Assembly: GCA_965368975.1 (NCBI GenBank)
Contig: CBDUPA010000004.1
Location: forward strand, 160,001-224,000
DNA: 64,000 bases
Reading direction: 5' to 3'
Origin: an uncultured bacterium
GTDB lineage: Bacteria; Acidobacteriota; Thermoanaerobaculia; Multivoradales; JAHZIX01
The notes beneath the pieces are model-generated. The model made no database searches. It had not been told where the DNA came from and saw nothing but the letters and a program-made list of their open reading frames with translations. The translations under genes and the position numbers were made by a program. Shown here one piece after another: positions 3,430 through 60,583 of the stretch; position 1 is the stretch's first letter, and the number at the start of each line of letters is the position of its first letter.

Positions 3430-3556
3430 GCTCTGATGCTACTTCACGTCGCAGTGTCGGGGCACAGTCTGTGCCTGCAGCCTGTGTCGGCGGGTTCGTG
3501 ATAAGCTCCTGCGGCATATTCCACGTCAAGAACCACATGCTAGGAGACCCTCCGCG

Positions 3557-5620
3557 ATGAACCGCCTGCCCACTACTTTTCTCTGTTGTCTGCTTCTCCT
3601 GATTGCCGTGTTGCCGGCGACCCAGGCAGCTGCTTCGGACGCATCCGCGGACGAGCGCCTCCTGCGAGTCGAAGAAGCCAACCCGCGCAGTCTGCACGGT
3701 CCGTACCCGACGCTGGTGGATAGCGTGCGCCTGGAGGCGCTCGATCTCGACAAGCTGCGCGCGGAAGACGAGCTGCGCGCCACCCAAGGTCTGCCGGGAC
3801 GGTTCGCTGTCGCCAACCCGGTGCAGATCAACCCGCTCAGCCATGGCGCTTGGACGGTGCTGGCCGATGGAACGCACCAATGGCGTTTCCGGGTCCAGGC
3901 TCCGGGCGCGACGTCCCTGAACTTCGCCTTCGAACGTTTCGAGCTGCCGGCCGACGCGCGCTTGACCGTCACCTCGACCGATGGTCAGTTGTGGTTGCCG
4001 GCGTTCACGGCGCGCGATCAGCGCGAGGGCCAGCTGTGGACACCGCTGCTGCGCACCGACGATGTGCTCCTCGAGCTGATGGTGCCGGCCGCACAGCGCG
4101 ACCAAGTACACCTGGAGTTGACCGGTATCCAGCAGGGTTACCGCGGTTTCGGTGCCCAGGAGCCCGGTACGGAAGGGGCCGACAAGTCCGGGGCCTGCAA
4201 TGTCGACGTGGTGTGTCCCGAGGGCAACGGCTGGCGCAGTCAGATCCGTTCGGTCGGTGTCTACAGCATCAACGGCATCTTCTTCTGCACCGGCTCGATG
4301 ATGCACAACACCTCGCAGGACTTCCGTCCGCTGTTCCTGACCGCCGACCACTGCGACGTGTCCACGGGCAATGACCAGTCCGTGGTCGTCTACTTCAACT
4401 ACGAGAATTCGACCTGCCGCACGCCGGGAGGAGCCGCCAGCGGCGGTAACGGCAACGGCCAGCTGAACCAGTTCGTCAGCGGTACCACACTGCGGGCCAA
4501 CGGCGCGGCTTCGGACTTCAGCTTGCTCGAACTCAGCGCCGACCCCAACCCGGCATGGAACGTGTTCTGGAACGGCTGGGACCGGCGCACGATCGATCCT
4601 TCCTCGGCGGTCGCAATCCACCATCCCAACACGGACGAGAAGCGCATTAGCTTCGAGAATCAGCCGCTGACGACGACCGGTTACACGGGTAGCAACAGCC
4701 CCGGTGACGGTACCCACTTGCGGGTCGAAGACTGGGATGTCGGGACGACCGAAGGTGGTTCTTCAGGCTCGCCGCTGTACAGCCCGCAGGGACGGGTGAT
4801 CGGCCAGCTGCACGGGGGTTTTGCGGCTTGCGGCAACAACCTGCCGGACTGGTACGGTCGTCTGTCGTACTCGTGGAATGCCGGTGGCAGCGCCGCGGCG
4901 CGGCTTCGGGATTGGCTGGACCCGGTGGGCAGCAACGTCCAGACCCTCAACGGCGCCAACAAGCCCACCGGCGGCAACCAGATCCCGGCCGCTCCGAGCA
5001 ACCTGAAGGTGCAGGCGACGTCCAACACCGAGGTGCAGCTGACCTGGAACGACAACTCGGACGACGAGGATCTGTTCCGTATCCAGATGAGCACGGATGG
5101 GGCGACCTACAACAATATCGGTGATTTGCCGGCGAATTCGACCGCGGCGAACATCAGCGGCCTGACGCCCGGGGCGGACTACTACTTCCGTGTTCGGGCG
5201 CGCAATGACGTTGGCAGTTCGGCGGCGTCCAACGTCGCGATGATCACCATGTCGCAGGTCACCGGACCTTGCGTGCCGGGTGTGTCGACGCTGTGCCTCA
5301 ACAAGGATCGTTTCCAAGTGCGGGCCGACTGGCGGCGCTCGAATGGCACCAGTGGAGCCGGGACGGGAGTCGAACTGACGGACGACACCGGCTACTTCTA
5401 TTTCTTCAACAGTGACAACGTCGAGATGGTGATCAAGGTTCTGGACGCCTGCGGCGGAAGCTTCGATCGCTTCTGGGTCTTCGCCGGAGGCCTGACGAAC
5501 GTAGAGGTTGACGTTATCGTGACCGACACGCAGACGGGGTCGATCCAGACCTACTCGAATCCGTTGAATACACCCTTTCAGCCGATTCAGGACACCAACG
5601 CCTTCGCCACCTGTCCCTGA
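3557..5620 (+). CDS. Secreted lysyl-endopeptidase-like S1 serine protease with propeptide, Fn3 domain and uncharacterised C-terminal domain
   Basis: Signal peptide; catalytic triad LTADHC / SDFSLL / TEGGSSGSP; GQLHGG...DWYGR; Fn3 (APSNL...LTWNDNS...GLTPGADYYFRVRA); AGGAGA SD. Confidence 0.85.
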   Translation: MNRLPTTFLCCLLLLIAVLPATQAAASDASADERLLRVEEANPRSLHGPYPTLVDSVRLEALDLDKLRAEDELRATQGLPGRFAVANPVQINPLSHGAWTVLADGTHQWRFRVQAPGATSLNFAFERFELPADARLTVTSTDGQLWLPAFTARDQREGQLWTPLLRTDDVLLELMVPAAQRDQVHLELTGIQQGYRGFGAQEPGTEGADKSGACNVDVVCPEGNGWRSQIRSVGVYSINGIFFCTGSMMHNTSQDFRPLFLTADHCDVSTGNDQSVVVYFNYENSTCRTPGGAASGGNGNGQLNQFVSGTTLRANGAASDFSLLELSADPNPAWNVFWNGWDRRTIDPSSAVAIHHPNTDEKRISFENQPLTTTGYTGSNSPGDGTHLRVEDWDVGTTEGGSSGSPLYSPQGRVIGQLHGGFAACGNNLPDWYGRLSYSWNAGGSAAARLRDWLDPVGSNVQTLNGANKPTGGNQIPAAPSNLKVQATSNTEVQLTWNDNSDDEDLFRIQMSTDGATYNNIGDLPANSTAANISGLTPGADYYFRVRARNDVGSSAASNVAMITMSQVTGPCVPGVSTLCLNKDRFQVRADWRRSNGTSGAGTGVELTDDTGYFYFFNSDNVEMVIKVLDACGGSFDRFWVFAGGLTNVEVDVIVTDTQTGSIQTYSNPLNTPFQPIQDTNAFATCP

Positions 5621-5661
5621 TCGCCAGCGATCTCGACATACCAGTCCTGTTGACTGCATGG

Positions 5662-10134: not shown

Positions 10135-10188
10135 AGGTCTCACCAGCAAGACGAGGCTAGGCAGGGCTAGGCCCAAGAGGAACCAACA

Positions 10189-13100
10189 ATGCCGAATACG
10201 GACGCGATCTTGGAAACCGTGGGTGCGCTGCTGCAGAACAAGCATCTCAACCTGCTGCTCGACACGCGTGACTTGCTGCAGCCGGTGGGCTCGCAGGGCG
10301 TGCAGCCGCGCCACGAAGAGGTACGCAGTTCGGCGACTACCGTCGAGGTCTACGGTCAGCCTCTGCGTCTCGATGCCGCCGCCGATGGCGATGTCCAGAT
10401 CTATGCTGCCGACGCCGAGGTCGAGGACCTGTTCGTCGGTGGCGAGACCTTCAAGGCGCCGGAGGGGACGTCGCTGGCGGCCCTGGGGATCTATGGCACG
10501 CTGGAACTGGGCTCCGAGATCCCGCCACTGTCGCAGGGAGCACTGACGCTGACCTTCACCGGCAGCAGCGACTCCAAGTTCGGCTATCAGCACTTGCTGC
10601 CGGTGTGGCAGAGCGAAGGTCGCGTCAAGGCTTTCACGGACCTGGCCTTGACCAGCCGCTTGCCGAGCCGAGTTCAGCTCGAGCAGTTGCGTCCCGGCGA
10701 AGTGCACCGCCTGGACGCCAGGGTCAACCTGTCGCTCGGGGTGCAGGCGCGATGGGGCAAGGAATTTGACCTCCACGAAGTGGTCGACTTGTGGCGCGGG
10801 CTGTCGGCTGGTGTGCGTGCGCACGCCGCCGCGGACCTGCAAGCCAGCCTCGGCTGGTCGCTGTACGAAGAGATGCAGCTGACCGTCGGCCGTGCCAACC
10901 TACTCAACCCTGGGTGGGTTCGCTTGCGTTTACAGCGCAGCCGCCGTCGTCACCTGACTCTCGGGACGGTGGTCGCCTTGCAAGCCAGCTACGACGGCAG
11001 CGACCTCGCCACCGTCCTGCAGCAGACGCTCGACCAGTCGCCGCTGCCGCGCCTGATCGAAGCCTTTCGGCCGATCGCGGCTGGCGACTGGGAGACCGTC
11101 AAGGCGAAGCTCACCGACCGCGTCACCGCGACGCTCGACGAGTACCTGGATACCACCGGCTGGCAGCAGTGGCTCGAGGGTCGCCCCGAGGTCCAAGAAC
11201 TGGTCGACACCGCGCACACGATGGTCGAGGCCTACGATGGCCTCGATGGCCGCATCCAGAGCTGGTGGGACCGTGTCCTCGGCCAGGTCGACCTGAGTGA
11301 GGGCGGCAAGGCTCGCGAGGTGCTGCAGGTCGTCGCCGGCATCGGCGGTGGCTCGCTGAATGACCTGATCGAGAACAAGGACGTACGCGAGGCACTGGAC
11401 TGGATCGAAGCCCTGACCGGCAAGAGCCTGGAGGATCTGGTTCTGGGTTCCAACGACGACCTGGAGCAAGCTCTGCAGCGTGCGGCCGAACTGGCGCAGC
11501 AGACGCTCGACTTTCTCGACAACCTGCCGGACAAGGTGCGTGCGCGGGTCGATACCTACGCCGGCAAGCTCGGCGTCCGCACCACGCTCGACTGGCTGAG
11601 CCAGCACGCGACTTCCAAGGCTGACTTGATCGCCTTCGTCGACGCGGCGGCCGAGAAGCGCCTACGGCAGTTGGTCGAACGCTTGCTCGACAAGGCTTGG
11701 GGGCGCATTTCCGAAGACGACTTGGCGGCTGTGCGTGCCTGGGCTCAGCGTCTGGTGGCCAACTACGACCGTCTCGAGGCGCGCTTTCGTAGCGCACTCG
11801 AGAAGTTCAAGGGAGAGCTCGGTTTCTCGCTCAGCATCACGATCGATCGCCTGAGCCAGCGCGAGGCGCTGCTGGATCTCGAGGTCGACCCGACGGATCC
11901 ACAGCTCAATACCGACATCACGAGCGCACTGCGGCAAGGCAATGTGCGCGGCTTGCTCGAAGCCCTACCACCGTTGACACAGCTACCTTCGACACAGCCG
12001 CTGGATGAGCCCGTGAACCAGCCGTCGGGCGCAGGGGGGCGGCGGGCGCGCTACCTGGTGCGCGAGGCCGTGTTGTCCGAGAAGCGCGTGCGCACCGCGA
12101 CGCTCTCCGTTCTCTTCCGCTTCCTGGGCTTGCAGAGCCTGATGCGCAACCAGAGTCAGTGGACCGAGGAAGCGCAGCTCGAGGTGCGTGGGCAGTCGGG
12201 TCGCTTCCAGCGCAAAGGGACCTATGCCGGCGGGTTTCGTCGTGCCAATAGCAACGTCCAGGAAACGGAAGCGGCGGTCTGGTTCGAGACCGCGGCGGCC
12301 GACTCCGCGGACCAGCCGCTGGCGCCCTTCGCTGCTGCCGCCCTCGACAACCACTTGCGCTTGACCTACGGCTTCCAGGATGCCGAGACCACCCTCGACG
12401 AGCGCGTGGCCTTGGATCACCTGCTGGCCAAGCTCGGTTTCTTGAAGTCACCCGGCAGTGTCGACAACCTCCGTCGCCGTCTCGGTGATGTACCGATCCT
12501 GGATCTGCGACTGGCAGTCGAGATCCGCATCGGCGGTGAAGGTGTCACGGCCCTGCTGCAAGACCTCCAGGGGCCAGCGGGAGATACCGCTGAAGCCAGC
12601 TGGAACGAGGATTACCTGCGCGCCGCCCAGCATTGGTTCCAGAGTCCGGTTCTGGCGGTCAATCGGTTTGACAGCGTCAAGCACCGGCCGCTCGGGGAGA
12701 TCCTCCTCGACCTGACCCGCCACAGTGACTTCGAAGGCAAGTGGCGACAGGGGCCCCAGCCACTGACCGAGGACTGGTTGCCCGGTGGCAAGAAGGTCGA
12801 GGTCGGTGGGCAGACCTACCTGGTCAAGCCGTTCAACCGAGACTTCGCCGGCAGCCCCGCGCTGCTGCAGCACTGGCGCCCCGAGTACAACAGCCTCTAC
12901 TTCTTGGCGGCCAACCGCGGTCCGGGGCTACGAGGATTTCGGACGCTGGCGCAGGCTGTGCGCAGCAGCGCCGAGCAGGGTACGCAGGCGGCCCTCGTCG
13001 CCCAGAGCCAAGCTGTCGCCGAAGGGCTCAAGGATGCCCACCCAGGCTACGCTGGTCTCAACCTGAGCTGGAACTGTCCCCTCTTCCTCACCTGGCTGGT

Positions 13101-13242
13101 GCTCACGCGGCTGTCCCGCGTGCGCCGCCAGAGCCTGAAAGAGGCCCGTGGCGTCGCGACCCTGCGCTGGCGCGCCCCGGGTTCGGAGGCCTGGCAGGAA
13201 CCCCTGCACTGGAAGCTGGACGCCGGAATACCTGTCCTGTGA
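10189..13242 (+). CDS. Large hypothetical protein (1017 aa)
   Basis: Long ORF with host-like codon usage and AGAGG SD; no recognisable motif, signal peptide or TM segment. Confidence 0.85.
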   Translation: MPNTDAILETVGALLQNKHLNLLLDTRDLLQPVGSQGVQPRHEEVRSSATTVEVYGQPLRLDAAADGDVQIYAADAEVEDLFVGGETFKAPEGTSLAALGIYGTLELGSEIPPLSQGALTLTFTGSSDSKFGYQHLLPVWQSEGRVKAFTDLALTSRLPSRVQLEQLRPGEVHRLDARVNLSLGVQARWGKEFDLHEVVDLWRGLSAGVRAHAAADLQASLGWSLYEEMQLTVGRANLLNPGWVRLRLQRSRRRHLTLGTVVALQASYDGSDLATVLQQTLDQSPLPRLIEAFRPIAAGDWETVKAKLTDRVTATLDEYLDTTGWQQWLEGRPEVQELVDTAHTMVEAYDGLDGRIQSWWDRVLGQVDLSEGGKAREVLQVVAGIGGGSLNDLIENKDVREALDWIEALTGKSLEDLVLGSNDDLEQALQRAAELAQQTLDFLDNLPDKVRARVDTYAGKLGVRTTLDWLSQHATSKADLIAFVDAAAEKRLRQLVERLLDKAWGRISEDDLAAVRAWAQRLVANYDRLEARFRSALEKFKGELGFSLSITIDRLSQREALLDLEVDPTDPQLNTDITSALRQGNVRGLLEALPPLTQLPSTQPLDEPVNQPSGAGGRRARYLVREAVLSEKRVRTATLSVLFRFLGLQSLMRNQSQWTEEAQLEVRGQSGRFQRKGTYAGGFRRANSNVQETEAAVWFETAAADSADQPLAPFAAAALDNHLRLTYGFQDAETTLDERVALDHLLAKLGFLKSPGSVDNLRRRLGDVPILDLRLAVEIRIGGEGVTALLQDLQGPAGDTAEASWNEDYLRAAQHWFQSPVLAVNRFDSVKHRPLGEILLDLTRHSDFEGKWRQGPQPLTEDWLPGGKKVEVGGQTYLVKPFNRDFAGSPALLQHWRPEYNSLYFLAANRGPGLRGFRTLAQAVRSSAEQGTQAALVAQSQAVAEGLKDAHPGYAGLNLSWNCPLFLTWLVLTRLSRVRRQSLKEARGVATLRWRAPGSEAWQEPLHWKLDAGIPVL

Positions 13243-28498: not shown

Positions 28499-29922
<1,424 letters not shown>

Positions 29923-29926
<4 letters not shown>

Positions 29927-31764
29927 TGCTCAGTCCCCCCCGGGAAGTCAGCTGGGAGTCGTGGTGGCTGGGTGCCGTGCGACGTCTGGTAATCCTCAGG
30001 TGTGCGAGTTCCTGTCCCTGGTTCGGTCTCGGGCGCTATCGGGTCCACTCTGAGCCGCTGTGGCGGCAGGCTGCGTACCTGTGTTTCCGGTGGTAACTCG
30101 ACAGTGATCGTGGTTCCATGGCCGGGCCGGCTGCGCGAGTGTAGCCGGCCGCCGTGCTCGGTGACGATGCGGTAGACGATCGCCATGCCAATTCCCAGGC
30201 CGTCGCCGAACAGCGAGTGGAAGGGGTCGAACAGCTGTTCCAGCTCTTCCTCGGTCATGCCGCAGCCAGTGTCGGAGATACTCAGAAAATAGCCCTCGAA
30301 CCCCCGGTCGCGGCCGATGACGCGCAGAATACCGCCATCGGGCATGGCCTTGAGGGCGTTGCGCACCAGATTCCAGAATACCTGGCTGATCTGGTCGGGG
30401 TCAGCGAAGGCCTCGGCAGATGCGACGTCCAGGTCGAGTTCGAGCTGGTGCTTTGGGGAGACCTCGGGGCTGTGGCTCAGCAGCTCGAAGTGCTCGGTGA
30501 TCATGGTGGCGATGTCGAAGCGCTCCGGTGAGCGTTCACGTGGACGGGCGAACTTGAGGAAGCTCTTGACGGTGCGATCGAGCCGCTGACTCTCTTTGTG
30601 AATCAGGCCGACCAGGCGGCGGTTGTCGGCGGCAACGCTCTCCGGCAGCATGTGCGTCAGCATCTGGGCCGAGCCGGAAATCGCCGCCAGCGGGTTGCCC
30701 AACTCGTGTGCCAGCCCGGCTGCCAACTGTCCTACGGCGGCCATGCGGTCGCGCACGTTGAGCTCACGCTCGAGTGCCCGGGTGTCGGTGAAGTCTTGGA
30801 ATACAATAATGAACCCGGTTTGTGTACCGGTGGCGTCGTTGAGGGGTGAAACGGAGTAGCCGACAAACGCCTCTCGGTCGCCGAAGTCGAGTTGCACTTC
30901 CTTGCGTTCGCCTGGCGGAGAGCCGCCGTCATGCACGATCTGCTGCCACTCCGGTTCGCCAAACAAGCCTGTCTGGACGATCGATTCTCCGATCAACTCG
31001 CCAGCCTCGACGTGCAGAATCTGCTGGCCGGCGTGGTTGATGCTGGTCATGAAGCCGTATCCGTCGGTCGTGATCAAGCCGCTGCCGATCGATTGCACGA
31101 CGTCGTGGTACTCGACCTCCAGATCGGCGAAGCGTTCCTTCTGGCTCACCAGGGCAGCCTCGGTGGCGCGTCCGCGCCGTGCCAGCTGCGAGCCGAGCGC
31201 GGCAGCAGCGTAGAAGCCGAAGAGAGCGATCACCAGGTTGTAGACCAGACGTGTGTTCTGTTCTTCGGTGGCCGCTCCTTCCAGGCCCCCATGCAGTACC
31301 AGCAGGATGGTGGCGTAGATGGCGAGCGCGGCGGTCGCGAAAGTGGTGCCGACGCGACGCGGTCCGAGGTGCAGTGCCGCCAGCACCACGATCAGCGGGT
31401 AGAGCGCCGAGAACGGGCTCTCGATGCCGCCGTAGGTGACGATCAGGGCACCTGTGAGCAGCAAGTCGACGCTCAGCTGTACGTAGGCCTGCGTCTTGAT
31501 GTGGCCTGGGAAGCGCTGCAGCAGCCAGCTGTAGACGACGCTCAAGATGCTGGTCGACAGCAGGACGAAGATCACCTTCGTCCACCCCTGCTCGTCGAAG
31601 ATCGCGGTCAGTTCTTCGCCGATACCGACTCCACCGCTACCGCCGCGCAGGTTGGCGACCAGCTGCACCATCACCCAGGTGAAAGTGACCAGGAGGACCA
31701 TCAACACGCGCACCCGGATCAACATCCCCAGCTGCCGCTCCAGCGGCGGCGCCAGGGTCTGCAT
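29923..31764 (-). CDS. pilS: PilS-like sensor histidine kinase (TM region, PAS, HisKA, HATPase)
   Basis: Multiple TMs with GGIESPFSALY; AHELGNPL; NLVRNA; DTGCG; GLGIGMAIV. Confidence 0.82.
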
Positions 31765-31822
31765 CGTGCGCGTTGTCAGTTCTTCAGGCTTGGTCAGCGC
31801 TCTTCCGTCCCGCCTCGTCAGG

Positions 31823-33031
31823 TCAGCCGATCTGGGTCAGGATCGAGTAGAGCGGCAGGTACATGGCAGTCACGACGACGCCGATGATGCCGCCGAGAAC
31901 GACGATCATGAGCGGCTCGATCAGCTTCATCAGGCCGGCCACTGCCGTGTCGACTTCTTCTTCGTAGAAGTCGGCGATCTTGGACAGCATCTGGTCGAGG
32001 GCACCCGTCTGCTCGCCGACGTTGATCATCTGCACGACCATCTGGGGGAAGACTCCGGTCTGGGCCAGCGGCTCGCTGATCGTCCGACCTTCCTCGACGC
32101 TCTTACGCACGGCCATGATGGCATCTTCGATGATCGCGTTGCCGGCGGTCCGGGCGGTGATCTCGAGGCCATCGAGGATCGGCACACCGGACGCGGTGAG
32201 GGTCGACAGGGTGCGGCAGAAGCGGGCCACGGCGATCTTGCGCAGCAGCATGCCGAGGATCGGCAAGCGCAGCATCAGTCCGTCGAGCACGCGCCGCCCC
32301 TTGTAGGTGTCATGGTAGCGGCGAATCGCGTAGACGCCGGCGGCCATGATGATAATAAGGAACAGACTGTAGCTTTGGGCGAAGTCACTGGCCGCGATGA
32401 CCCAGCGGGTCAGGGCCGGCATCTCGGAACCGACACCGGCAAACAGCTGGCCGAACACTGGGATCACGAAGCGCAGGATGATCCACACCACGCCGATGGC
32501 GATCGTGATGACGCTGACCGGATAGATCAGCGCCGACTTGACCTGTGCCTTCAGCTTCACGGCCTTCTCGATGTAGTTGGACAGGCGCTGCAGGATGATG
32601 TCGAGGATACCGCCGGCCTCACCGGCGGCGATCATGTTGACGTACAGCGTGTCGAAGGCCTTCGGATGCTTGCTCATCGCCTCGGCCAGCGACGCGCCCT
32701 GTTCGACATCCCCCCGCACGGCTTTGATGATGTCGGCGAAATTGGGATGCTCTTCCTGGCTGCCCAGGATCTCGAGACACTGCACTAGCGGCAGGCCGGC
32801 GTCGAGCATGACGGAGAACTGGCGGGTGAACAGGGCGATGCGCTTCTGCGGTACCTTGGTGTTCAGCTTCAGGCGCTTGATGATCGGGATCTCGCGTCCC
32901 TTCTCCTTGATGCTGATCACCTGGATCTGCTGGCGCCGCAGGGCAGCTTCGGCAGCGGCCTTGCTGTCGTAGAGGTCGACGCCTTCGACGACTTGACCGC
33001 CACGGCGGCCTTTCCACTGGAACGTGGGCAT
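31823..33031 (-). CDS. pilC: Type IV pilus inner-membrane platform protein PilC
   Basis: FTRQFSVMLDAGLPL, AGEAGGILD, KSALIYP, GEQTGALDQML, AMYLPLY. Confidence 0.95.
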   Translation of the reverse strand: MPTFQWKGRRGGQVVEGVDLYDSKAAAEAALRRQQIQVISIKEKGREIPIIKRLKLNTKVPQKRIALFTRQFSVMLDAGLPLVQCLEILGSQEEHPNFADIIKAVRGDVEQGASLAEAMSKHPKAFDTLYVNMIAAGEAGGILDIILQRLSNYIEKAVKLKAQVKSALIYPVSVITIAIGVVWIILRFVIPVFGQLFAGVGSEMPALTRWVIAASDFAQSYSLFLIIIMAAGVYAIRRYHDTYKGRRVLDGLMLRLPILGMLLRKIAVARFCRTLSTLTASGVPILDGLEITARTAGNAIIEDAIMAVRKSVEEGRTISEPLAQTGVFPQMVVQMINVGEQTGALDQMLSKIADFYEEEVDTAVAGLMKLIEPLMIVVLGGIIGVVVTAMYLPLYSILTQIG

Positions 33032-33034
33032 GGT

Positions 33035-34150
33035 CTATCTCCTCGCCTGTCGCGCGGGGGAGGCGCTTCCGGCCTGGGCCTGTTGGCCGCGGGCGATGAT
33101 CTCTTGCAGCTCGTCCGCATTGGACGAGCGCGCCATGGCTACCTGTAGCGTGATCTTGCGCTGGAAGTACAAGGCTGCCAGGCTCTGGTTGAAGGTCTGC
33201 ATGCCGTATTTGGCCTGGCCGGTCTGCATCATGCCGTAGATCTGGTGCACCTTGTCCTCTCGGATCAGGTTGCGGATGCCCGAAGTCGGCACCAGCACTT
33301 CCATCGCCATCGCACGGCCTTTGCCACTCGAGCGCGGCAGGAGCGTCTGACACATGATGCCTTCGAGCACGAACGACAGTTGCACCCGGATCTGTCCCTG
33401 CTGGTGGGCTGGGAAGACGTCAATGATGCGGTTGATGGTCTGGGCCGCCGAGTTGGTGTGCAGCGTGGCGAAGGTCAAGTGACCGGTCTCCGCGATGCGC
33501 ATCGCCGATTCCACGGTCTCGAAGTCACGCAGCTCACCAATCAGCACCACGTCCGGGTCTTGGCGCAGGGCCGAGCGCAGCGCGTTCGAGAAGCTGTGCG
33601 TGTCGGCTGCCAGCTCGCGCTGGTTGACAATGCAGCTCTTGTGCTGGTGCAGGTACTCGACCGGGTCTTCGATCGTGATGATGTGCTCGTGCCGCTCGCG
33701 ATTGATCTTGTCGATCATCGCCGCCAGCGTCGTCGACTTGCCGGAACCGGTTGGGCCGGTGACCAGGATCAGTCCGCGCGGCTTCTCGCATAGCTTCTCG
33801 ACGATGGCGGGCAGGCCGAGCTTCTGGAAGCCCAAGATCTCGTAGGGGATCTGCCGGAACACCGCCGCGATGGCGCCGCGCTGATGGAACACGTTGGCCC
33901 GGAAACGGGCCAGATTCTTGATCCCGAAGGAGAAGTCGATCTCCAGGTTCTCTTCCAGCCGCTGCTTCTGCAGGTCGGTGAGGATCGAGTACGCCAGTTG
34001 CTTGGTCTGCGTCGGCGTCATGGGCGGGGTGTTGAGCGGGTGCAACACGCCATCAATCCGGATCTGTGGTGAAGCGTTGGTGGTGAGATGAAGATCCGAG
34101 CCGCCCTGGTCGATCATCGCCTTGAGCAGCTGGTTGAGGGTCACGGCCAT
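33035..34150 (-). CDS. pilT: Type IV pilus retraction ATPase PilT
   Basis: SDLHL, GPTGSGKSTT, TIEDPVE, LRQDPD, AETGHLTFATLHTNS, GIRNLIRE, GMQT. Confidence 0.95.
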   Translation of the reverse strand: MAVTLNQLLKAMIDQGGSDLHLTTNASPQIRIDGVLHPLNTPPMTPTQTKQLAYSILTDLQKQRLEENLEIDFSFGIKNLARFRANVFHQRGAIAAVFRQIPYEILGFQKLGLPAIVEKLCEKPRGLILVTGPTGSGKSTTLAAMIDKINRERHEHIITIEDPVEYLHQHKSCIVNQRELAADTHSFSNALRSALRQDPDVVLIGELRDFETVESAMRIAETGHLTFATLHTNSAAQTINRIIDVFPAHQQGQIRVQLSFVLEGIMCQTLLPRSSGKGRAMAMEVLVPTSGIRNLIREDKVHQIYGMMQTGQAKYGMQTFNQSLAALYFQRKITLQVAMARSSNADELQEIIARGQQAQAGSASPARQARR

Positions 34151-34331
34151 GCAGAATCTCCACGGATGCGGGGAGGATCAATGAATCGAAGCTACAGCAT
34201 TCGCAAGTCTACACCATCCCGACGTGCCTGCAAGGATCTCGGGCCTCCCGCTCGTCAGAGGTCGCGGGAGCCCGTATGGAAGGGGCTTGGCGGTGATGCG
34301 AGCATGGTCGGAGTGCGGTAAGGTGCCGGGC

Positions 34332-51930: not shown

Positions 51931-52011
51931 AGTCACGGCCGGTGCGTGTGCTGACACGCACCGGCTCCTCGCGCTCGATGCTGCCTTGGGCGGCGTGCTA
52001 GACTCCGCCAG

Positions 52012-52428
52012 ATGTGGAAGACCGCCCTGCACGCCGTGCTCGCCGCTGTGTTGCCATCCGTGATGATGGCGATGGCGGTCTGTGCGGTGCTACCGGTGTG
52101 TCCGATGATGGGGCAAGGGCCGGCGATGGGCGCACAGGTGTCCACGGCGGACCATCACGAAGCGGCACAGGGTCACTGCCACGCAGCAGCACCGACGGAA
52201 TCGAGCGATGACTCGGAGACATCCGGTGCACGCTGTTGCTGTGAGCAACCTCCCGTCACCCCATCGACCACCGTCGACGTTCCGCTCGACCTCGGCTTTT
52301 TCGCCATCCTCACTCTCGACGCGCCCGAGCCCGTGCTCGACGGCGTTCCGACCGCGCGTCCCGAGACCCCGCCCCGGCCGGGTCCGCTGATTCCTCTCTT
52401 CACGCTCCACGCATCCCTGCTGATTTGA
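52012..52428 (+). CDS. Small Cys/His/Met-rich protein upstream of cusCBA (DUF2946-like; candidate regulatory leader peptide)
   Basis: Hydrophobic N-terminus, CPMM, HHE, HCH, CCC, Pro-rich linker, PPRPGP, C-terminal LHASLLI; TGnTAGACT -10 element 7 nt before ATG. Confidence 0.75.
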   Translation: MWKTALHAVLAAVLPSVMMAMAVCAVLPVCPMMGQGPAMGAQVSTADHHEAAQGHCHAAAPTESSDDSETSGARCCCEQPPVTPSTTVDVPLDLGFFAILTLDAPEPVLDGVPTARPETPPRPGPLIPLFTLHASLLI

Positions 52429-52542
52429 GACGTCCTTCCGGCGGAGTTTGAACCGCCGCGGGGACGCGTGCGCTCTCGGGTGAGAGCGCGGATCAGGCTG
52501 AGTGCGTCCCCGTGGTTTCATTGCAACCTCGGAGGACGTACC
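52429..52542 (+). promoter_or_regulatory. Structured intercistronic element with anti-SD
   Basis: ACGTCCTTCCG (52430-52440) is complementary to CGGAGGACGT (52530-52539, the cusC SD); inner stems 52456-52467/52504-52515 and 52470-52477/52482-52489. Confidence 0.6.
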
Positions 52543-53934
52543 TTGTCGACTCGGAACCTATTGGCTGCTATCGCAGCCGTGATCCTACTTGCCGCAGCGG
52601 CTGCGCCAGCTCGCGCCTCCTCAGACAGTCAGCGGCCGGCAGACCTTCTGCTCTCGACGCTCGAACCATCGGCTCTCGCCGACTTCGTGAGCGAAGTCTT
52701 GGAGCGCAGTCCACGCCTGGCGCGGGCCCGCGCCGAAGCGGCAGCGATGGAGGTGCGGGCGCCGCAGGTGCGTGCGTTACCGGACCCGGTCGCGTCGCTG
52801 ACCCTCTTCCTGCTGCCCCCGGAGACGCGCGTCGGACCGCAGCGCTTGACGGTCGGGGTGTCGCAAGCCCTACCCTGGTGGAGCAAGCTCGAATTGCGCG
52901 AGCGTGACGCGCTCTACCAGGCTGCCGCGGCGCGCGCCCAGGTCGATGCTGAGCGCCTGAAGTTGCTCACCGAGGCGCGCACGCTCGCGTACGAGCTGGC
53001 GTTCACGGTCGAGCTGGCGACGATTGCGCGCCAGGAACGCGACCATCTACGACGTCACGAAGAAGCCGCCCAGGCGCGCTACGCGGCTGGCGTTGGCCTA
53101 CAGCAGGCTGTGATCAAGGTGCAGGCCGAGATCACGCGCGCTGAGCAGCGGCTATTGGAGATCGAGCAACGACGGCGGAGCCTCGTCAGCCGGCTGAACG
53201 CGTTGCGTGAGCGGCCGGCGGACACGGCGGTGCCGGCCGTGACCCTGCCCGAGATCTCCGCGTCCGACTTGACGCTTTCGGAGTTCGACGGCGCCTCCTT
53301 CGGCGATCTCCTCGCGGATCTGCGCGCTGCGGCGCGTGTGCAACGGCCGGAACTGGTGGCTTTGCAGGCGCAGCTGCAGGCAGCGGAAGCCCGCGTCGAG
53401 CTGGCGCAGAAGAGGCGGTTGCCGGACTTCACCGTTGGCCTCGGGTACACGGTCGTCGATCGTCGTGACGATGCCCCGGGCCGTGCCAATCCGCCGCCGG
53501 ACAATGGGGAAGACATCCTGGCCATCACGGGTGGGGTCCGGCTGCCTCTGTGGCGAGAGAGCCTGGCGGCCAGCTTGGAAGAAGCTCTGCAGCGCCAGCG
53601 TGTCCTCGAGTTCGCCGAACGCCAGCTGCACAGCGACATCGAACGTGACCTCGGCGATCTGCTGTCCCGGCTGCCGCTGCTGCACGAGCAGTGTCGCTTG
53701 TTCGATCGGGTCCTGCTGCTGCAAGCCGAAGAGGCCCTGCACTCAGCTGAGACGGCGTACGCCACCGGCAAGACCGACGTACTGAACCTTCTCGACGCCG
53801 AACACGTGCTATTCGACGTTCGTCGCGGTCGCTTGCGGGCGCGCGCAGACTTCGTCGTCGCCTTGGCGCAGCTGGAGGGAGTGACGGGAGTGCCCCTGCG
53901 AGGAGAATTACAGACAATGGAGAACGTGCAATGA
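52543..53934 (+). CDS. cusC: TolC/CusC-family outer-membrane efflux protein
   Basis: Signal peptide, ALPDP, VSQALPW, QARYAAG, RPEL, LPDFTVG, AYATGK..VLNLLDA; TTG start after GGAGG. Confidence 0.85.
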   Translation: MSTRNLLAAIAAVILLAAAAAPARASSDSQRPADLLLSTLEPSALADFVSEVLERSPRLARARAEAAAMEVRAPQVRALPDPVASLTLFLLPPETRVGPQRLTVGVSQALPWWSKLELRERDALYQAAAARAQVDAERLKLLTEARTLAYELAFTVELATIARQERDHLRRHEEAAQARYAAGVGLQQAVIKVQAEITRAEQRLLEIEQRRRSLVSRLNALRERPADTAVPAVTLPEISASDLTLSEFDGASFGDLLADLRAAARVQRPELVALQAQLQAAEARVELAQKRRLPDFTVGLGYTVVDRRDDAPGRANPPPDNGEDILAITGGVRLPLWRESLAASLEEALQRQRVLEFAERQLHSDIERDLGDLLSRLPLLHEQCRLFDRVLLLQAEEALHSAETAYATGKTDVLNLLDAEHVLFDVRRGRLRARADFVVALAQLEGVTGVPLRGELQTMENVQ

Positions 53935-55427
53935 AGTCGTTTCCCCGTACCTTGTTGACCGTCGTGGCAAGCGCGCTCGCGGGCATCTGTGTGACCGTCT
54001 TGGTTGTTCTCGATCCGCTCGGGCTGCATCCGTTCGACGAGCGCTGGTTCGGTGACGAACAGGAGCAGGCTAGCAGCGGCCAGTTGTGGACCTGCGGCAT
54101 GCACCCGCAAGTGATGCTCGAGGAGTCGGGCGCGTGCCCGATCTGCCACATGGAGCTGGTACCGCTGGACGCCGAGGAGGACCACACGCACGACGCTGGC
54201 GCTGAGCCAGACGAACTCTGGACGTGCCCGATGCATCCCAACATCTTGCAGCACGAGTTCGGCCGCTGCCCGATCTGTGGCATGGATCTGGTGCGCGTCG
54301 AAGTCGAGGAGAGCGACTCGAGCACCTCGACTGCCGGCGATCCACAGCAGGGAGCCATCGTGTCGCTGGAGCCGTCGGTGATCCAGACGATGAATGTTCG
54401 CACGGCGCCGGTCGAGCGGCGGGACCTGGCGCGCGAGATTCGCACCGTCGGCTACCTGGAGTACGACCCGGAACGTATGGTCACCGTGACGACCAAGTAC
54501 GCGGGCTGGGTGGAGAAGGTCTATGTGAACTATGTCGGCGAGCGCGTGCGCCGGGGTCAACCGCTGTTCGAGATCTACGCGCCGGAGCTGGTGCAGACGG
54601 AGCAAGAGCTGCTCTCCGCGCTCGACTTCGCCGCCCGTATGGCACGCCTGTCGGAGAACGGGGACGATTCCGAGTCTGACCAGGATGCCCTGCGGCGCGC
54701 CGAGGCCCTGGTGGAGGCGGCACGAACGCGGCTGCGCTACTGGGACATCCGCGACGAACAGGTCGCCGAGCTGGAGCGTACGCGGGAGGTGTTCCGCACG
54801 CTGACGGTCACGGCGCCGGCCTCCGGGGTCGTGATGAAGCGCATGGACGGCCTCGAAGGCATGGCAGTCAGGCCCGGGATGGAGACCTTTCACCTGGTCG
54901 ATCTGTCGGGCTTGTGGTTGTCCGTGGAGGTGTATGAAGATCAGATCGGAGACATCGAGCGCGGCATGACGGCCGATGTCCACTTCAGCACCTACCCCGG
55001 CGAGACCTTCCACGGCACGGTGCGCTTTCTGGAGCCGGAGCTGTCCGAGCGGACGCGTACGCTCGGGCTCAAGCTGGCGGTTTCCAACCGAGACGGCCGG
55101 TTGCGTCCGGGTATGTATGCGACGGTCGAGCTGCAGCCCGTTGCCGCGCCCGACGCCCTGACCGTGCCCTCTGCCGCCGTGCTGCGCACCGGCGAGCGCG
55201 ATGTCGTGGTGGTGTCGCTGGGCGGTGGTCGCTTCGCGCCACGCACCGTCACGGTGGGGCACGAGTTGCAGGGCCGCACGCAACTGCTCGACGGCGTCCA
55301 CGAAGGCGAGCACGTGGTGACGTCGGCGCAGTTCCTGCTCGATTCCGAGTCGAACCTGCGGGCGGCGATCCAGCGCTTGGCGTCTCAAGAGCGGTCCTCG
55401 CGGCAGCAGCAGGAAGGGGGGAGTTGA
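53931..55427 (+). CDS. cusB: CusB-family RND adaptor with two heavy-metal-binding domains
   Basis: WTCGMHP...CPICHMELVP and WTCPMHP...CPICGMDLV; GWVEK, YAPELVQTEQE, LRPGMY, SAQFLLDSESNL. Confidence 0.9.
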   Translation: MKSFPRTLLTVVASALAGICVTVLVVLDPLGLHPFDERWFGDEQEQASSGQLWTCGMHPQVMLEESGACPICHMELVPLDAEEDHTHDAGAEPDELWTCPMHPNILQHEFGRCPICGMDLVRVEVEESDSSTSTAGDPQQGAIVSLEPSVIQTMNVRTAPVERRDLAREIRTVGYLEYDPERMVTVTTKYAGWVEKVYVNYVGERVRRGQPLFEIYAPELVQTEQELLSALDFAARMARLSENGDDSESDQDALRRAEALVEAARTRLRYWDIRDEQVAELERTREVFRTLTVTAPASGVVMKRMDGLEGMAVRPGMETFHLVDLSGLWLSVEVYEDQIGDIERGMTADVHFSTYPGETFHGTVRFLEPELSERTRTLGLKLAVSNRDGRLRPGMYATVELQPVAAPDALTVPSAAVLRTGERDVVVVSLGGGRFAPRTVTVGHELQGRTQLLDGVHEGEHVVTSAQFLLDSESNLRAAIQRLASQERSSRQQQEGGS

Positions 55428-55428
55428 C

Positions 55429-58400
55429 ATGCTGGCCAAGCTCATCGAGTGGTCCCTGCGCAACCAGCTGCTGGTGATCGTCGGTGTCGTGACGTCGGTG
55501 GTCGCCGGCCTGTGGGCGGTGCAGGAGATCCGCCTCGACGCCATTCCCGACCTCACCGACACACAGGTGATCGTCTACACCGAGTTTTCCGGTCAAGGGC
55601 CGCAGGTGGTCCAAGATCAGGTCACCTTTCCGATCAGCTCGACCTTGCTTGCCGTGCCGCACGCCAAGGTGGTGCGCGGCTACTCCTTCTTCGGCTTCTC
55701 GCTGGTCTACGTGCTGTTCGAAGATGGCACTGATCTCTACTGGGCCCGCGCCCGCGTGCTGGAGACGCTGTCCGGACTCACAGGGCAGCTGCCTGACGCC
55801 GTGGCACCGCGGCTGGGGCCGGATGCCACGGGCGTCGGTTGGGCCTACATCTACACGCTCAATTCTGACCGGCGCTCGCTCGAGGAGTTGCGCAGCCTGC
55901 AGGATTGGTATCTCCGCTACGGCTTGACCGCGGTCGAGGGCGTTTCCGAGGTCGCCTCGGTCGGTGGCTTCGTGCGCCAGTACCAAGTCGAAGTCGACCC
56001 CGTACGCATGCGGGCCTATGGCGTTTCTCTGCCACGCGTGCGCGACGCCATTCGCCGCTCCAACAGGGACGTTGGTGGCCGTCTGCTGGAGATGGCGGAG
56101 CGCGAGCTGATGATCCGCGGGCGCGGGTACATCCGAGAGATCGAGGACCTGGAGCAGATCCCTCTTGGGAGCGGCGCCGGGGGCGTGCCGATCCTGCTCA
56201 GCGATGTCGCTCGGGTCAGTATTGGCCCGGAGATCCGGCGCGGCCTGGTCGACTGGAACGGCGAGGGTGAGACCGTGGCCGGTATCGTCGTGGTGCGCTC
56301 GGGTGCCGACACGCTGAGCACCATCGCGCGGGTCAAGGAGAGGCTGGAAGAGCTGCGCGCCGGCCTGCCGGACGACGTACGCATCGACGTCGCTTACGAC
56401 CGCACGCAGCTGATCGAGCGCTCGGTCGAGACGCTGACCGACACGCTGGTCGAAGAGTCGATCGTGGTGGCACTGGTGTGCCTGATCTTTCTCTTCCACC
56501 TGCGCTCGGCCTTTGTCGCCATCGTGTCGATCCCGATGTCGATCCTCCTGGCGCTGGTCCTGATGCATCTGCAGGGCCTGGGCGCCAACATCATGTCCCT
56601 GGGTGGCATCGCGATCTCGATCGGGGTGCTGGTAGATGCAGCGATCATCATGGTCGAGAACGCCCACAAACACTTGGAGAAGGCGCCGAGTGACGGTAGA
56701 CATTCGCATTTCGACCTGATCTTGCGGGCGTCGCAGGAAGTTGGGCCGACGCTCTTCTTCACCCTCTTGATCATCACCGTCTCGTTCCTGCCCATCTTCA
56801 CCCTGCAGGATCAGGAGGGGCGCCTGTTCAAGCCGCTGGCCTTTACCAAGACCTATGCCATGGGCTTGTCGGCGATCCTGGCGGTGACGGTCGTGCCGGT
56901 GCTCATGTACTGGTTCGTGCGCGGGCGCGTGTGGAGCGAAGACAAGCACCCGGTATCGCGCCTGCTGCGCTGGCTCTACAAGCCGTTCCTGAATCTGGCG
57001 CTGCGCTGGCGCTGGCCGCTGCTCGTGGCCACCGTGCTGGTGCTGGCCTTGACCTTCATTCCGCTGCAACGCATCGGTTCAGAGTTCATGCCGCCGCTGT
57101 GGGAGGGTGACATCCTCTACATGCCGACGACGCTGCCCGGAATCTCGATCGACAAGGCGCGCGAGCTGACCCAGCAAACCGACCGGCTGATCGCCGAAGT
57201 GCCGGAAGTGATCAGCGTGCTGGGCAAGGCGGGGCGTGCCGAGACGCCCACGGACCCGGCGCCCCTGTCGATGTTGGAGACGCACATCTTGCTCAAAGAC
57301 CCGAGCGAATGGCGTCCAGGCTTGACGCGCGAGGATCTGATTCGCGAACTCGACGAGCGGGTGCAGATTCCAGGCCTCACCAACGCCTGGACGATGCCGA
57401 TCCGCACGCGCATCGACATGCTGTCGACCGGTATCCGGACGCCGGTCGGCATCAAGATCGGCGGCCCCGACCTGGTGACCCTGGAGCGCCTGGCACAGGA
57501 GGTCGAAACCCTGGTCAAGCCGCTGCCCGGTACGCTCACCGCCTACGCCGAGCGCGTCATGGGTGGTACCTACCTGGACTTCGACATCGATCGTGCCGCT
57601 GCCGCGCGCTACGGCCTGACGGTGGGAGATGTGCAAGACGTGATCCAGACCGCGGCCGGCGGCATGAACGTCACCTGGACGGTCGAGGGGCTGGAGCGCT
57701 ACCCGGTGAATGTGCGCTATCCGCGCGAGCTGCGCGACGATCCCGAAGCTCTGGGGCAGATCCTGGTGCCGACGCCGGGCGGTGCCCAGATTCCGCTCAG
57801 CCAGCTGTCGACGCTGGAGATCCATGCCGGTCCGCCGGGCATCAAGTCGGAGAATGCACGCCCCAATGCCTGGGTCTACGTCGATCTCCGCGGGATCGAT
57901 GTCGGCACCTGGGTCGAGCGGGCACGCCAGGTCGTCGACGCGCATCTCGAGCTACCGCCCGGGTACACCCTCTTCTGGTCCGGTCAGTACGAAGCGATGG
58001 AGCGGGCGCGGGCCCGCCTGCTGGTCATCGTGCCGCTGACGCTGCTGGTCATCTTCGTCATCCTCTACGTCCACACGCGTTCGTGGGTGAAGACGGCGAT
58101 GGTCCTGCTGGCCGTGCCGTGTGCCCTGGTGGGCTCGGTGTGGCTGCTCGACGCGCTGGACTACAACAGCTCGGTCGCCGTTTGGGTCGGCCTGATTGCG
58201 CTGGCTGGTCTGGCGGCCGAGACCGGCGTCGTGATGCTGCTCTATCTCGACCTGGCCTATGACGAGTGGAAGGCGAAGGGCCGGATGCAGACGTGGGCGC
58301 ACTTGGTCGAAGCCGTCGACCACGGCGCGCTGCAGCGCATCCGACCCAAGATGATGACCGTGGCCACGGTCCTGGTATCTCTGGTTCCCATCCTGTGGGC

Positions 58401-58611
58401 TACCGGAACCGGTGCCGACGTCATGCGCCGCATCGCCGCGCCGATGGTCGGTGGCATCCTGACCTCCTTCATCAGCGGGTTGTTCCTGTTCCCGGCGCTC
58501 TACTTCATCTGGCGCTGTCGAGGGTTGGAGCGTTCGGAGCTGTTCCCGACGCAGGCGGCGTTGCAGGAGAGCGAGTCGGAGTCGGAGCTCGACGAGGAGG
58601 AAACCGCGTAA
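55429..58611 (+). CDS. cusA: CusA-family Cu(I)/Ag(I) RND efflux pump
   Basis: LDAIPDLTDTQVI, GPDATGVGW, MSLGGIAI..G.LVDAAI, metal Met triad (LYMPT, PLSML, IDMLSTG), RIRPKMMT, RIAAPMVGG. Confidence 0.95.
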   Translation: MLAKLIEWSLRNQLLVIVGVVTSVVAGLWAVQEIRLDAIPDLTDTQVIVYTEFSGQGPQVVQDQVTFPISSTLLAVPHAKVVRGYSFFGFSLVYVLFEDGTDLYWARARVLETLSGLTGQLPDAVAPRLGPDATGVGWAYIYTLNSDRRSLEELRSLQDWYLRYGLTAVEGVSEVASVGGFVRQYQVEVDPVRMRAYGVSLPRVRDAIRRSNRDVGGRLLEMAERELMIRGRGYIREIEDLEQIPLGSGAGGVPILLSDVARVSIGPEIRRGLVDWNGEGETVAGIVVVRSGADTLSTIARVKERLEELRAGLPDDVRIDVAYDRTQLIERSVETLTDTLVEESIVVALVCLIFLFHLRSAFVAIVSIPMSILLALVLMHLQGLGANIMSLGGIAISIGVLVDAAIIMVENAHKHLEKAPSDGRHSHFDLILRASQEVGPTLFFTLLIITVSFLPIFTLQDQEGRLFKPLAFTKTYAMGLSAILAVTVVPVLMYWFVRGRVWSEDKHPVSRLLRWLYKPFLNLALRWRWPLLVATVLVLALTFIPLQRIGSEFMPPLWEGDILYMPTTLPGISIDKARELTQQTDRLIAEVPEVISVLGKAGRAETPTDPAPLSMLETHILLKDPSEWRPGLTREDLIRELDERVQIPGLTNAWTMPIRTRIDMLSTGIRTPVGIKIGGPDLVTLERLAQEVETLVKPLPGTLTAYAERVMGGTYLDFDIDRAAAARYGLTVGDVQDVIQTAAGGMNVTWTVEGLERYPVNVRYPRELRDDPEALGQILVPTPGGAQIPLSQLSTLEIHAGPPGIKSENARPNAWVYVDLRGIDVGTWVERARQVVDAHLELPPGYTLFWSGQYEAMERARARLLVIVPLTLLVIFVILYVHTRSWVKTAMVLLAVPCALVGSVWLLDALDYNSSVAVWVGLIALAGLAAETGVVMLLYLDLAYDEWKAKGRMQTWAHLVEAVDHGALQRIRPKMMTVATVLVSLVPILWATGTGADVMRRIAAPMVGGILTSFISGLFLFPALYFIWRCRGLERSELFPTQAALQESESESELDEEETA

Positions 58612-59995: not shown

Positions 59996-60583
59996 TCAGC
60001 TGAACAGCTTGTCGACCGCCAGCACCCACCCCGGAACCGCGGGCTCCGCCTCGGCCAGACTGCCGCTGCCGTAGACGGCCGCGGGTGTCTCGGAATCGCC
60101 GTCGCGGAAGACGCGCACGGTCTCATCCCCGCGCAGGTCGACATCCCACACGACCAGCGTCCCGGCGGCGAAGTAGTCCGCGCGCTTGGCGGCCATCGCC
60201 TGCTCAGCCGCAGGACCATAGTCGTTCTCGCTACGGATCTCGACCGCGAACACCGGAGCACCCTGCATGAACCTCAAGTCCTTCGGTGGTGGGTCCTGGT
60301 GGAAGGCGATATCGGGACTGAAGCTCTTCCGGTTCGGCAGGTCGACCACGAAGCCGACGTTGTCCGGGTACACGTAGCCGCCGGCCTGCTTCTCGAAAGG
60401 ATAGAGGTGCCGGCAGAGGATGAAGCCCACGCGGCCGGGCAAGCCTCCGGTGGGACTCATACTGACCAGTCTGCCGTCGACAAGCTCCGCCTTGTCGGGT
60501 TCTCGATAGAGATCCGTGAGAGTCGCGGGATGCTTCGGCGCGGACGGGGGTGTCCCCGACGGGGACGTTTGGAGGTGTTCCAT
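59996..60583 (-). CDS. Uma2-family PD-(D/E)XK endonuclease-like protein
   Basis: AELVDG, SPDIAF, GAPVFAVEIRS, KRADYFAAGTLVVWDVD, EPAVPGW. Confidence 0.88.
   Translation of the reverse strand: MEHLQTSPSGTPPSAPKHPATLTDLYREPDKAELVDGRLVSMSPTGGLPGRVGFILCRHLYPFEKQAGGYVYPDNVGFVVDLPNRKSFSPDIAFHQDPPPKDLRFMQGAPVFAVEIRSENDYGPAAEQAMAAKRADYFAAGTLVVWDVDLRGDETVRVFRDGDSETPAAVYGSGSLAEAEPAVPGWVLAVDKLFS

Follow-up and report, generated by a model that had tools for sequence, protein, structure and literature searches.

A Cysteine-Rich Leader Open Reading Frame Ahead of cusCBA in an Uncultured Acidobacteriota Genome: A Candidate CutF-Like Translational Switch

We analyzed a 64,000-nt stretch of DNA from an uncultured bacterium of the Acidobacteriota (GenBank assembly GCA_965368975.1, contig CBDUPA010000004.1, positions 160,001 to 224,000, forward strand; hereafter the window, with coordinates counted from its first letter). 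It carries a cusCBA-type metal efflux operon headed by a 138-aa open reading frame (ORF), denoted P0001, that may act in cis as a leader controlling translation of the pump genes. An earlier sequence-only reading had taken P0001 for a candidate metal-sensing leader peptide on which ribosomes arrest by default at an RPGP motif, cusC's Shine–Dalgarno (SD) sequence staying paired until metal releases the ribosome to the stop codon. The leader ORF and the masking of the SD stood up to the present analysis, whereas the arrest motif, the polarity and the novelty of the principle did not.

The Leader ORF and the cusCBA Operon

The features of the locus are as follows.

51939–51964, + strand: perfect, GC-rich 11-bp hairpin with a 4-nt loop
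51996–52004, + strand: extended −10-like element TGcTAGACT
52012–52428, + strand: leader ORF P0001, 138 aa, TGA stop, first gene before cusC-cusB-cusA
52234–52242, + strand: CCC codons C75–C77, the last two (C76 and C77) being invariant among family members and standing 61 residues before the C-terminus
52375–52386, + strand: RPGP, in a Pro-rich stretch 13 codons ahead of TGA
52396–52428, + strand: C-terminal tail LFTLHASLLI plus TGA, the invariant family tail and proposed arrest peptide at or next to the stop
52543–53934, + strand: cusC-like outer-membrane factor (Pfam OEP, E = 5.5e-38)
53931–55427, + strand: cusB-like adaptor with two N-terminal HMBD repeats (HlyD_D23, E = 1.2e-68; HMBD, E = 8.2e-19, two stretches)
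55429–58611, + strand: cusA-like pump of the heavy-metal efflux class of the resistance–nodulation–division superfamily (HME-RND; TIGR00914, 1118.7 bits against a cutoff of 701)

The GC content of P0001 by codon position (0.70/0.55/0.75) is consistent with coding in this frame. The traits listed by the sequence-only reading (138 aa, a hydrophobic N-terminus, the ligand clusters CPMM, HHE, HCH and CCC, and RPGP 13 codons before the stop) are all present; its start at 51996 needs correction, because the ORF starts at 52012 and 51996–52004 is the −10-like element. The cysteines lie at C24-x5-C30, C56 and C75–C77, and the C-terminus reads ...PLFTLHASLLI followed by TGA. In an AlphaFold2 model computed with the family alignment, the only confident part is the helix at residues 2–25 in the hydrophobic N-terminus (predicted local distance difference test score, pLDDT, 85–90), the model overall having a pLDDT of 62.6 and a predicted template modelling score (pTM) of 0.27. 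With no folded domain predicted beyond the signal helix, P0001 does not resemble a folded chaperone; its linker is predicted to be disordered, and the N-terminal signal in the model suggests that the protein would be exported.

No SD precedes the ATG of this upstream ORF (uORF), and 7 nt separate it from the end of the −10-like element, so that a leaderless transcript with a candidate −10 just upstream is plausible from the sequence. No full sigma-70 match came out of the promoter scan, and the promoter and terminator scan returned 0 sites. The hairpin at 51939–51964 begins 9 nt past the stop of the upstream gene, a PLP (pyridoxal phosphate) enzyme of Cys/Met metabolism that ends at 51930; having no T-run, the hairpin was not listed by the terminator scan. 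The preceding transcription unit probably ends here, with the hairpin as an 'I-shaped' terminator isolating uORF-cusCBA.

By profile matches, the three downstream genes have the composition of a CusCBA-type HME-RND efflux system, namely an outer-membrane factor, an HlyD_D23 adaptor and a pump of the CusA/CzcA family. The cusB product matched the CusB subfamily model at 2.9e-53, which is under that model's cutoff, and CusA shares 49% identity with plasmid SilA and 57% with a CusA from Roseomonas. The start of cusC is likely the TTG at 52543, with the SD GGAGGA at 52531–52536: this start yields a signal-peptide-like N-terminus, and tblastn matches to related CusC proteins open at query residues 5–6 (loci L001 and L003, described below) or at residue 45 (locus L002). 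As the sequence-only reading had noted for metal regulators and cusF, no CusRS, MerR, ArsR, CsoR or CusF was found among the scanned ORFs of the window (those under ~100 aa outside 47–64 kb were not all scanned); the sole two-component pair found there is PilS/PilR-like, at 28.5–31.8 kb. The HMBD (PF19335) repeats of CusB stand in tandem at residues ~50–125, and the orthologue at L003 has one; these repeats might be a stand-in for the missing CusF.

Structured RNA Masks the cusC SD

The spacer between the uORF and cusC is 114 nt long (42 G, 34 C) and can be divided into four segments around an inner hairpin.

52430–52440, + strand: segment 1, first anti-SD, ACGTCCTTCCG (= ACGUCCUUCCG), pairing with segment 4 or segment 2
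52460–52469, + strand: segment 2, GGGGACGCGT (= GGGGACGCGU), pairing with segment 1 or segment 3
52469–52490, + strand: inner 9-bp hairpin, common to both alternative folds
52502–52512, + strand: segment 3, second anti-SD, GTGCGTCCCCG (= GUGCGUCCCCG), partner to segment 2 or to the segment 4 SD
52530–52545, + strand: segment 4, cusC initiation region, with the SD GGAGGA at 52531–52536 and TTG at 52543

In the minimum free energy (MFE) fold, ACGUCCUUCCG (52430–52440) pairs with CGGAGGACGU (52530–52539; also given as CGGAGGACGT) over 10 bp with one bulge, around nested stems, in agreement with the helix described by the sequence-only reading. The fold of 52420–52560 is more stable than expected (z = −3.97; 0 of 200 shuffles as stable), and exposing 52530–52545 in the free RNA costs 15.8 kcal/mol, compared with 9.4 ± 2.2 kcal/mol in spacer shuffles, 2 of 200 of which reach the observed value. 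Segment 1 begins 1 nt past the uORF stop, within reach of a ribosome on the stop codon, and a ribosome-sized block over the stop plus 12 nt reduces the cost of exposing the SD from 15.8 to 7.1 kcal/mol.

Two alternative folds, 1:4 + 2:3 and 1:2 + 3:4, differ by no more than ~2 kcal/mol, and the SD is paired in both; segments 1 and 3 are interchangeable as partners, and so are segments 2 and 4. The earlier expectation that covering the anti-SD frees the SD had overlooked segment 3. When 52415–52442 or 52426–52440 was held single-stranded, the SD remained paired, now to the second anti-SD at 52502–52512, and the folding check that the sequence-only reading had itself suggested (52415–52442 single-stranded) left 5 of the 6 SD bases paired, with a probability of being unpaired of at most 0.01. 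The cusC SD is thus masked by structured RNA, and a ribosome at the stop weakens the masking without full release at equilibrium. The uORF-cusC leader looks like a four-segment switch. Segments 1 and 3 (ACGUCCUUCC and GCGUCCCC) resemble an internal duplication, as do segments 2 and 4 (GGGGACGC and GGAGGACGU), the whole array spanning 52430–52541; an ACGUCC element of this spacer recurs in the spacer at L003.

A Protein Family with an Invariant Tail and a Fixed Cysteine Spacing

On sequence grounds, P0001 is a member of an undescribed family of apparently exported, Cys-rich leader peptides. A phmmer search of P0001 against 1.84 billion cluster representatives returned only P0001 itself, and a single-sequence word search returned one relative, P0006 (72% identity); profiles built from the first relatives then retrieved P0009–P0035. 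The family comprises 30 proteins (P0001, P0006, P0007 and P0009–P0035), i.e., P0001 and 29 relatives obtained by profile searches; P0008 duplicates P0007 and was omitted. P0006, with a miscalled N-terminal extension of 96 residues, was kept outside alignments A3 and A4 and included in the motif and spacing counts. Lengths range from 113 to 150 aa, except for P0006 (miscalled at 234 aa), and identity to P0001 is only 20–31% (alignment A4, P0006 excluded). Inspection of the alignment by eye shows a family with a hydrophobic N-terminal stretch and Cys clusters.

A CC pair is found in all 30 members, and so is the tail LFTLH[A/D/S]x[F/L/Y]L[I/T] directly before the stop. The invariant elements are CC, LFTLH and a Leu at the second residue from the end; 28 members end in Ile and 2 in Thr. 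CC stands 61–69 residues (median 67) from the C-terminus in 30/30, across unrelated linkers and including the weakest matches (E = 1–10). The sequence-only reading had proposed checking homologs for conservation of Cys/His and RxxP: the CC pair is conserved, RPGP is not. Only 5 of the 30 members have RxGP in their C-terminal half, where it stands 13, 20 or 22 codons before the stop. PP is present within the last 15 residues in 16 of the 30; in P0001 it is at residues 120–121, 18–19 residues from the end, and falls outside. The last 12 residues encoded in the window and at L003 agree at 9 positions, and different synonymous codons are used at 4 of these 9, which indicates selection on the peptide.

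None of the 29 A4 members scanned matched Pfam or NCBIfam, and an Rfam search returned nothing meaningful. A profile search of the Protein Data Bank (PDB) with the family gave one irrelevant match (E = 1.6) and no similarity to any PDB chain, and 'LFTLHA' did not occur in the literature searched. The nearest clusters in the ESM Atlas are unnamed (score 0.96); some clusters are partly DUF2946 (0.93, 23% share) or DUF8199 (0.95, 47% share), and these are leads only, as is the hint of Acidobacteriota-like bacteria that the look-alike clusters give. We found no mention of DUF8199 or DUF6660 in the literature, and only an unrelated mention of DUF6769. For DUF2946 (PF11162), neither P0001 nor any of the 29 A4 members gave a match at E <= 1. 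The comparison of the family with CutF-like proteins used a published rule set, the DUF2946 hidden Markov model (HMM) and two cus-linked controls.

P0006, the closest relative, is encoded on a Logan contig of 4896 nt, where its 96-residue N-terminal extension is unlike the gene upstream of P0001 in the window, suggesting a different upstream neighborhood as well as a miscalled start. An additional His/Pro-rich insertion follows CPMM in this protein. By our own reading of the sequences, the signal of several family members ends in a lipobox-like LAAC or IAAC.

Other cusC Loci and Plasmid Controls

A genome scan with CusC yielded only three loci (L001, L002 and L003; 36% identity), none of them from the genome of the window itself. 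At L003, in a metagenome-assembled genome (MAG), a family ORF of 125 aa lies directly upstream of cusC, cusB (with HMBD) and cusA; it ends in ...VPLFTLHAAFLI before the stop, and the spacer is 134 nt. No family member was found at L001 or L002, where six frames contained no ORF of at least 50 aa and no tail motif. Both loci are from Acidobacteriota: L002, which has no uORF, has a divergent gene for an ArsR-family regulator (5326–5646, − strand), and L001, which has no leader ORF, has a gene for a PepSY_TM-like protein just upstream (3060–3617, + strand). The PepSY_TM-like family also accompanies operons headed by CruR, a copper-responsive uORF product of Bordetella.

Plasmid tblastn searches with P0014 and with CusC gave no match, and plasmid CusA matches served only as the source of controls of a known kind. 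One control, P0037, is encoded by a small 'hypothetical' ORF upstream of a cus-like operon on a Roseibium plasmid. Its tail is ...RPPRLL-stop, its score against DUF2946 (E = 0.0015, 19.7 bits) is under the 23.7-bit cutoff, and its last codons and stop supply the anti-SD strand of the helix that closes over the SD of the next gene (z = −3.82). The architecture of the P0037 locus is the same as that of the window. The proteins themselves differ in sequence: hhalign of A4 gave a probability of 0.8% against P0037 and of 16.7% against P0038, the latter over the signal peptide only. P0036 (Novosphingobium) was set aside as a control, having no PP tail and no DUF2946 match. On two alphaproteobacterial plasmids (L006, 2306–2680; L004, 2583–2987), CutF/DUF2946-like small ORFs annotated 'hypothetical protein' precede cus-like operons, with a signal peptide, a Met/His/Cys cluster and tails of ...RPPRLL-stop or ...HPPRA-stop. 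In L006 the uORF's final codons and its stop make up the anti-SD of the gene that follows.

A CutF-Like Mechanism and Its Alternatives

The closest working model comes from Rhodobacter capsulatus, where CutF is described as a protein of 118 aa with a C69xxxC73 motif and a C-terminus reading ...GPPPRL (PMC9973294, PMC8456105 and bioRxiv 10.1101/2025.02.05.636593). CutF is exported co-translationally, and Cu at the periplasmic motif prolongs a stall at the C-terminal prolines and melts the stem-loop over the cutO SD (PMC9973294 and bioRxiv 10.1101/2025.02.05.636593). A 45-residue spacing is reported as conserved in CruR and CutF (PMC9426467 and PMC9973294), and the CutF papers explain it as tunnel length plus membrane length.

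We propose, with a probability of about 0.5, that P0001 is a cis-acting leader that controls cusCBA translation in a CutF-like manner, metal inducing a stall and the stall turning the pump on. The nascent chain would be directed to the Sec translocon by its N-terminal signal. With the ribosome at the last codons, the CC cluster would be 61–69 residues from the peptidyl-transferase center, a length of chain roughly equal to exit tunnel plus membrane, so that CC would emerge just beyond the translocon on the periplasmic side. Cu(I) or Ag(I) bound at the CC cluster would lessen the pulling force on the chain, and the tail LFTLHASLLI would then hold the ribosome at or next to TGA. Export, metal binding, stalling, the stall site and its polarity are what we infer by analogy with CutF.

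In ermC translational attenuation, four segments pair as 1:2 and 3:4 with the SD in segment 4, and a ribosome stalled on segment 1 allows 2:3 to form and leaves segment 4 free. Here, a ribosome parked on segment 1 would let 2:3 pair and would free segment 4 (SD plus TTG), so that cusC is translated and the pump is on; without metal, fast termination would lead to 1:2 + 3:4 (or 1:4 + 2:3), with the SD masked and the pump off. Such a switch would be kinetic, the ribosome sitting on segment 1 while segments 2 and 3 are made. The ribosome footprint extends about 15 nt ahead (+15), and with Ile138 in the P site it would reach ~52438. The tail is encoded by the final ten codons and segment 1 starts 1 nt past the stop, so that only a ribosome held on the tail would have its footprint on segment 1. 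An efflux target combined with an arrest tail at the stop requires metal-induced stalling, i.e., the CutF polarity, and the release from a stall put forward by the sequence-only reading has the opposite sense: the tail at the stop fits a metal-induced stall leading to the on state.

Several points weigh against the CutF-like mechanism. With segment 1 covered, the SD-free state is 6.5–7 kcal/mol less stable than 3:4 pairing, and as 3:4 is still favored at equilibrium, the switch would have to be kinetic. At L003 the SD is masked no more than chance allows, 18 of 200 shuffles attaining the observed value, and placing a ribosome on the stop reduces the cost of exposure only slightly, from 13.1 to 11.0 kcal/mol; genomic context is available for only 2 of the 30 members (the window and L003). 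The mechanism is by analogy only, because homology to DUF2946 or CutF-like proteins is not detectable. No known arrest peptide resembling the tail was found, and the tail has neither a proline run nor a RAPP-type core; a hydrophobic C-terminus conserved in this way could instead serve for docking or as a protease degron. Finally, a word-based search enriches proteins that share the tail, so that its invariance is partly an effect of retrieval; retrieval does not account for the CC spacing or for the tail ending exactly at the stop.

A bolder version of the proposal is possible but doubtful, and we put it forward tentatively: LFTLH-x-x-x-L-[IT]-stop may be a new, proline-independent class of stop-codon arrest sequence, switched on across the membrane by soft metal bound to a Cys cluster that lies one tunnel-plus-translocon length (61–69 residues) away, and driving an ermC-like four-segment switch for a Cu/Ag RND pump with no transcription factor, a second independent solution of the CutF/CruR type.

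Among the alternatives, the one that survives best, and that we regard as rather unlikely, is that the product is not a regulator but a working exported, disordered, possibly lipid-anchored, Cys-rich Cu/Ag-binding accessory of the pump (a CusF substitute, or CzcI-like), with the tail as a docking motif or as a tag for a protease of the PDZ/Prc type, the helix serving only to couple translation of cusC to the ORF and metal induction coming from a regulator encoded elsewhere in the genome. The operon has no cusF, the Cys/His/Met clusters are typical of soft-metal ligands, lipobox-like LAAC or IAAC stands at the signal end in several members, and the SD is masked at equilibrium despite a ribosome at the stop, all of which would suit an accessory protein. 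A proline motif is also lacking in the CutF-like CzcI of Cupriavidus, which PMC9973294 discusses as a regulator that senses metal. Against an accessory protein stand the want of a predicted folded domain (pLDDT 62.6, pTM 0.27), the finding of no regulator among the scanned ORFs of the 64 kb, and the geometry of the locus, in which the motif ends at the stop in 30/30 and the anti-SD begins 1 nt past it; a strict CC-to-stop length over non-conserved linkers fits a nascent-chain ruler more naturally.

Transcriptional control of the CruR type, in which a ribosome at the uORF end would govern Rho-dependent or intrinsic termination within the 114-nt spacer, appears improbable. CruR does work in this way (PMC9426467), and behind the 2:3 hairpin lies a weak U-rich tract, GUGGUUUCAUU; yet the spacer is G-rich (42 G and 34 C of 114 nt) and highly structured, which makes it a poor site for Rho loading, the scan found no terminator-like site, and the statistically significant feature is the masking of the SD.

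The model of the sequence-only reading, with default arrest at RPGP holding the pump off and a metal-released ribosome freeing the SD at the stop, is quite improbable. RPGP is loosely like RAGP/RAPP, arrest in CruR is relieved by Cu (PMC9426467), and the anti-SD does start 1 nt past the stop. Nevertheless, only 5/30 members have RxGP in the C-terminal half, at a variable distance from the stop, RPGP has Pro at position 2 and is not among the RAPP-like cores that were tested (the text of PMC12992588 contains it 0 times), and a ribosome at RPGP would leave ~30 nt between itself and the anti-SD. In the folding test the SD stayed paired, to 52502–52512, and the invariant tail would be left without a role.

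A chance ORF in GC-rich DNA next to a fortuitous hairpin would explain why nothing matched in Pfam or NCBIfam and why phmmer against 1.84 billion cluster representatives matched P0001 only, and is very improbable given 29 relatives with the same architecture, synonymous substitutions in the conserved tail and a syntenic copy at L003.

Significance of the Family

The idea of a nascent chain that senses metal is already published, and so is its link to cus operons. CruR-like sensing on an efflux operon, offered as a new idea by the sequence-only reading, has a published precedent in CutF, and CutF-like ORFs most often precede OEP (CusC/CzcC/SilC) genes according to PMC9973294. What appears to be new, judged by comparison with these systems, is a sequence-unrelated and unannotated family that seems to work like CutF with a different putative arrest tail.

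If the CutF-like mechanism is true, nascent-chain 'transmembrane' metal sensing would gain an RND efflux pump as a target, beyond the cases of a multicopper oxidase (CutF) and an uptake transporter (CruR), the tail would be a new arrest sequence without a proline core, informative on how the exit tunnel and release factors are blocked, and the induction of cusCBA operons without CusRS or CueR would be explained. The family is missing from Pfam and NCBIfam, so its genes now go unnoticed or carry the annotation 'hypothetical'; a simple rule that combines the tail motif with the CC spacing would pick them out.

Other Genes of the Window

Three further regions were noted. On the − strand at 28499–34177, genes for the PilS-like kinase and a sigma-54 response regulator adjoin F- and E-type genes of a type II secretion system or type IV pilus (T2SS/T4P) and are unrelated to metals. 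An ORF of ~1023 aa at 10171–13242 (+ strand) has a strong coding-type GC content at third codon positions (0.82) and no Pfam match at E <= 1e-6. A gene for a Uma2-family putative endonuclease (59996–60583, − strand) lies directly past a Na+/H+ antiporter gene, which itself follows cusA.

Comparison with Known Systems

The likeness to SecM and TnaC lies in an exported leader that ends in a conserved peptide, which would sit in the tunnel with the ribosome at or near the stop, and in a downstream helix that masks an SD. The difference is that the family has neither a RAGP/RAPP core nor a terminal proline; a core of the type R-[A/G/S/D]-[P/G]-P, conserved among homologues, is not a feature of the P0001 family.

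CruR (Bp2923 of Bordetella pertussis) is defined by CXXC and by RAPP three residues from its end, and Cu relieves its arrest, leading to Rho termination of an uptake operon (PMC9426467). Both products are encoded by a uORF at the head of a copper-related operon, contain Cys and keep a conserved distance from putative sensor to arrest site, and P0001 has a predicted export signal such as most CruR members have. It differs in having neither CXXC nor RAPP, in its efflux target and in that the significant RNA feature here is the masking of an SD.

With ermC the locus shares a leader ORF and four RNA segments with the SD in segment 4. The inducer here would be a periplasmic metal acting via the translocon, as opposed to an antibiotic in the exit tunnel; an extra conformer, 1:4 + 2:3, exists, and the SD-free 2:3 state lies 6.5–7 kcal/mol above 3:4.

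CutF is the nearest parallel. Both are small exported proteins, by prediction in the case of P0001, with a Cys motif at a fixed distance from a conserved C-terminal motif, and both are encoded by the first gene of a metal-detoxification operon (cutFOG in the case of CutF), ahead of a short structured spacer that masks the next SD. P0001 agrees with the CutF-like rule set in its length of 138 aa, its 114-nt spacer and its hydrophobic N-terminus (PMC9973294), and departs from the rule 'PP within last 15 residues', which 16/30 family members pass. We found no experimental CutF-type case for an RND pump in the literature searched. Relative to CutF, the family ends in LFTLHxxxL[IT]-stop rather than in the PPP/PP of CutF-like proteins, the spacing is 61–69 residues as opposed to 45, two anti-SD segments take the place of one stem-loop, and the target here is an RND pump.

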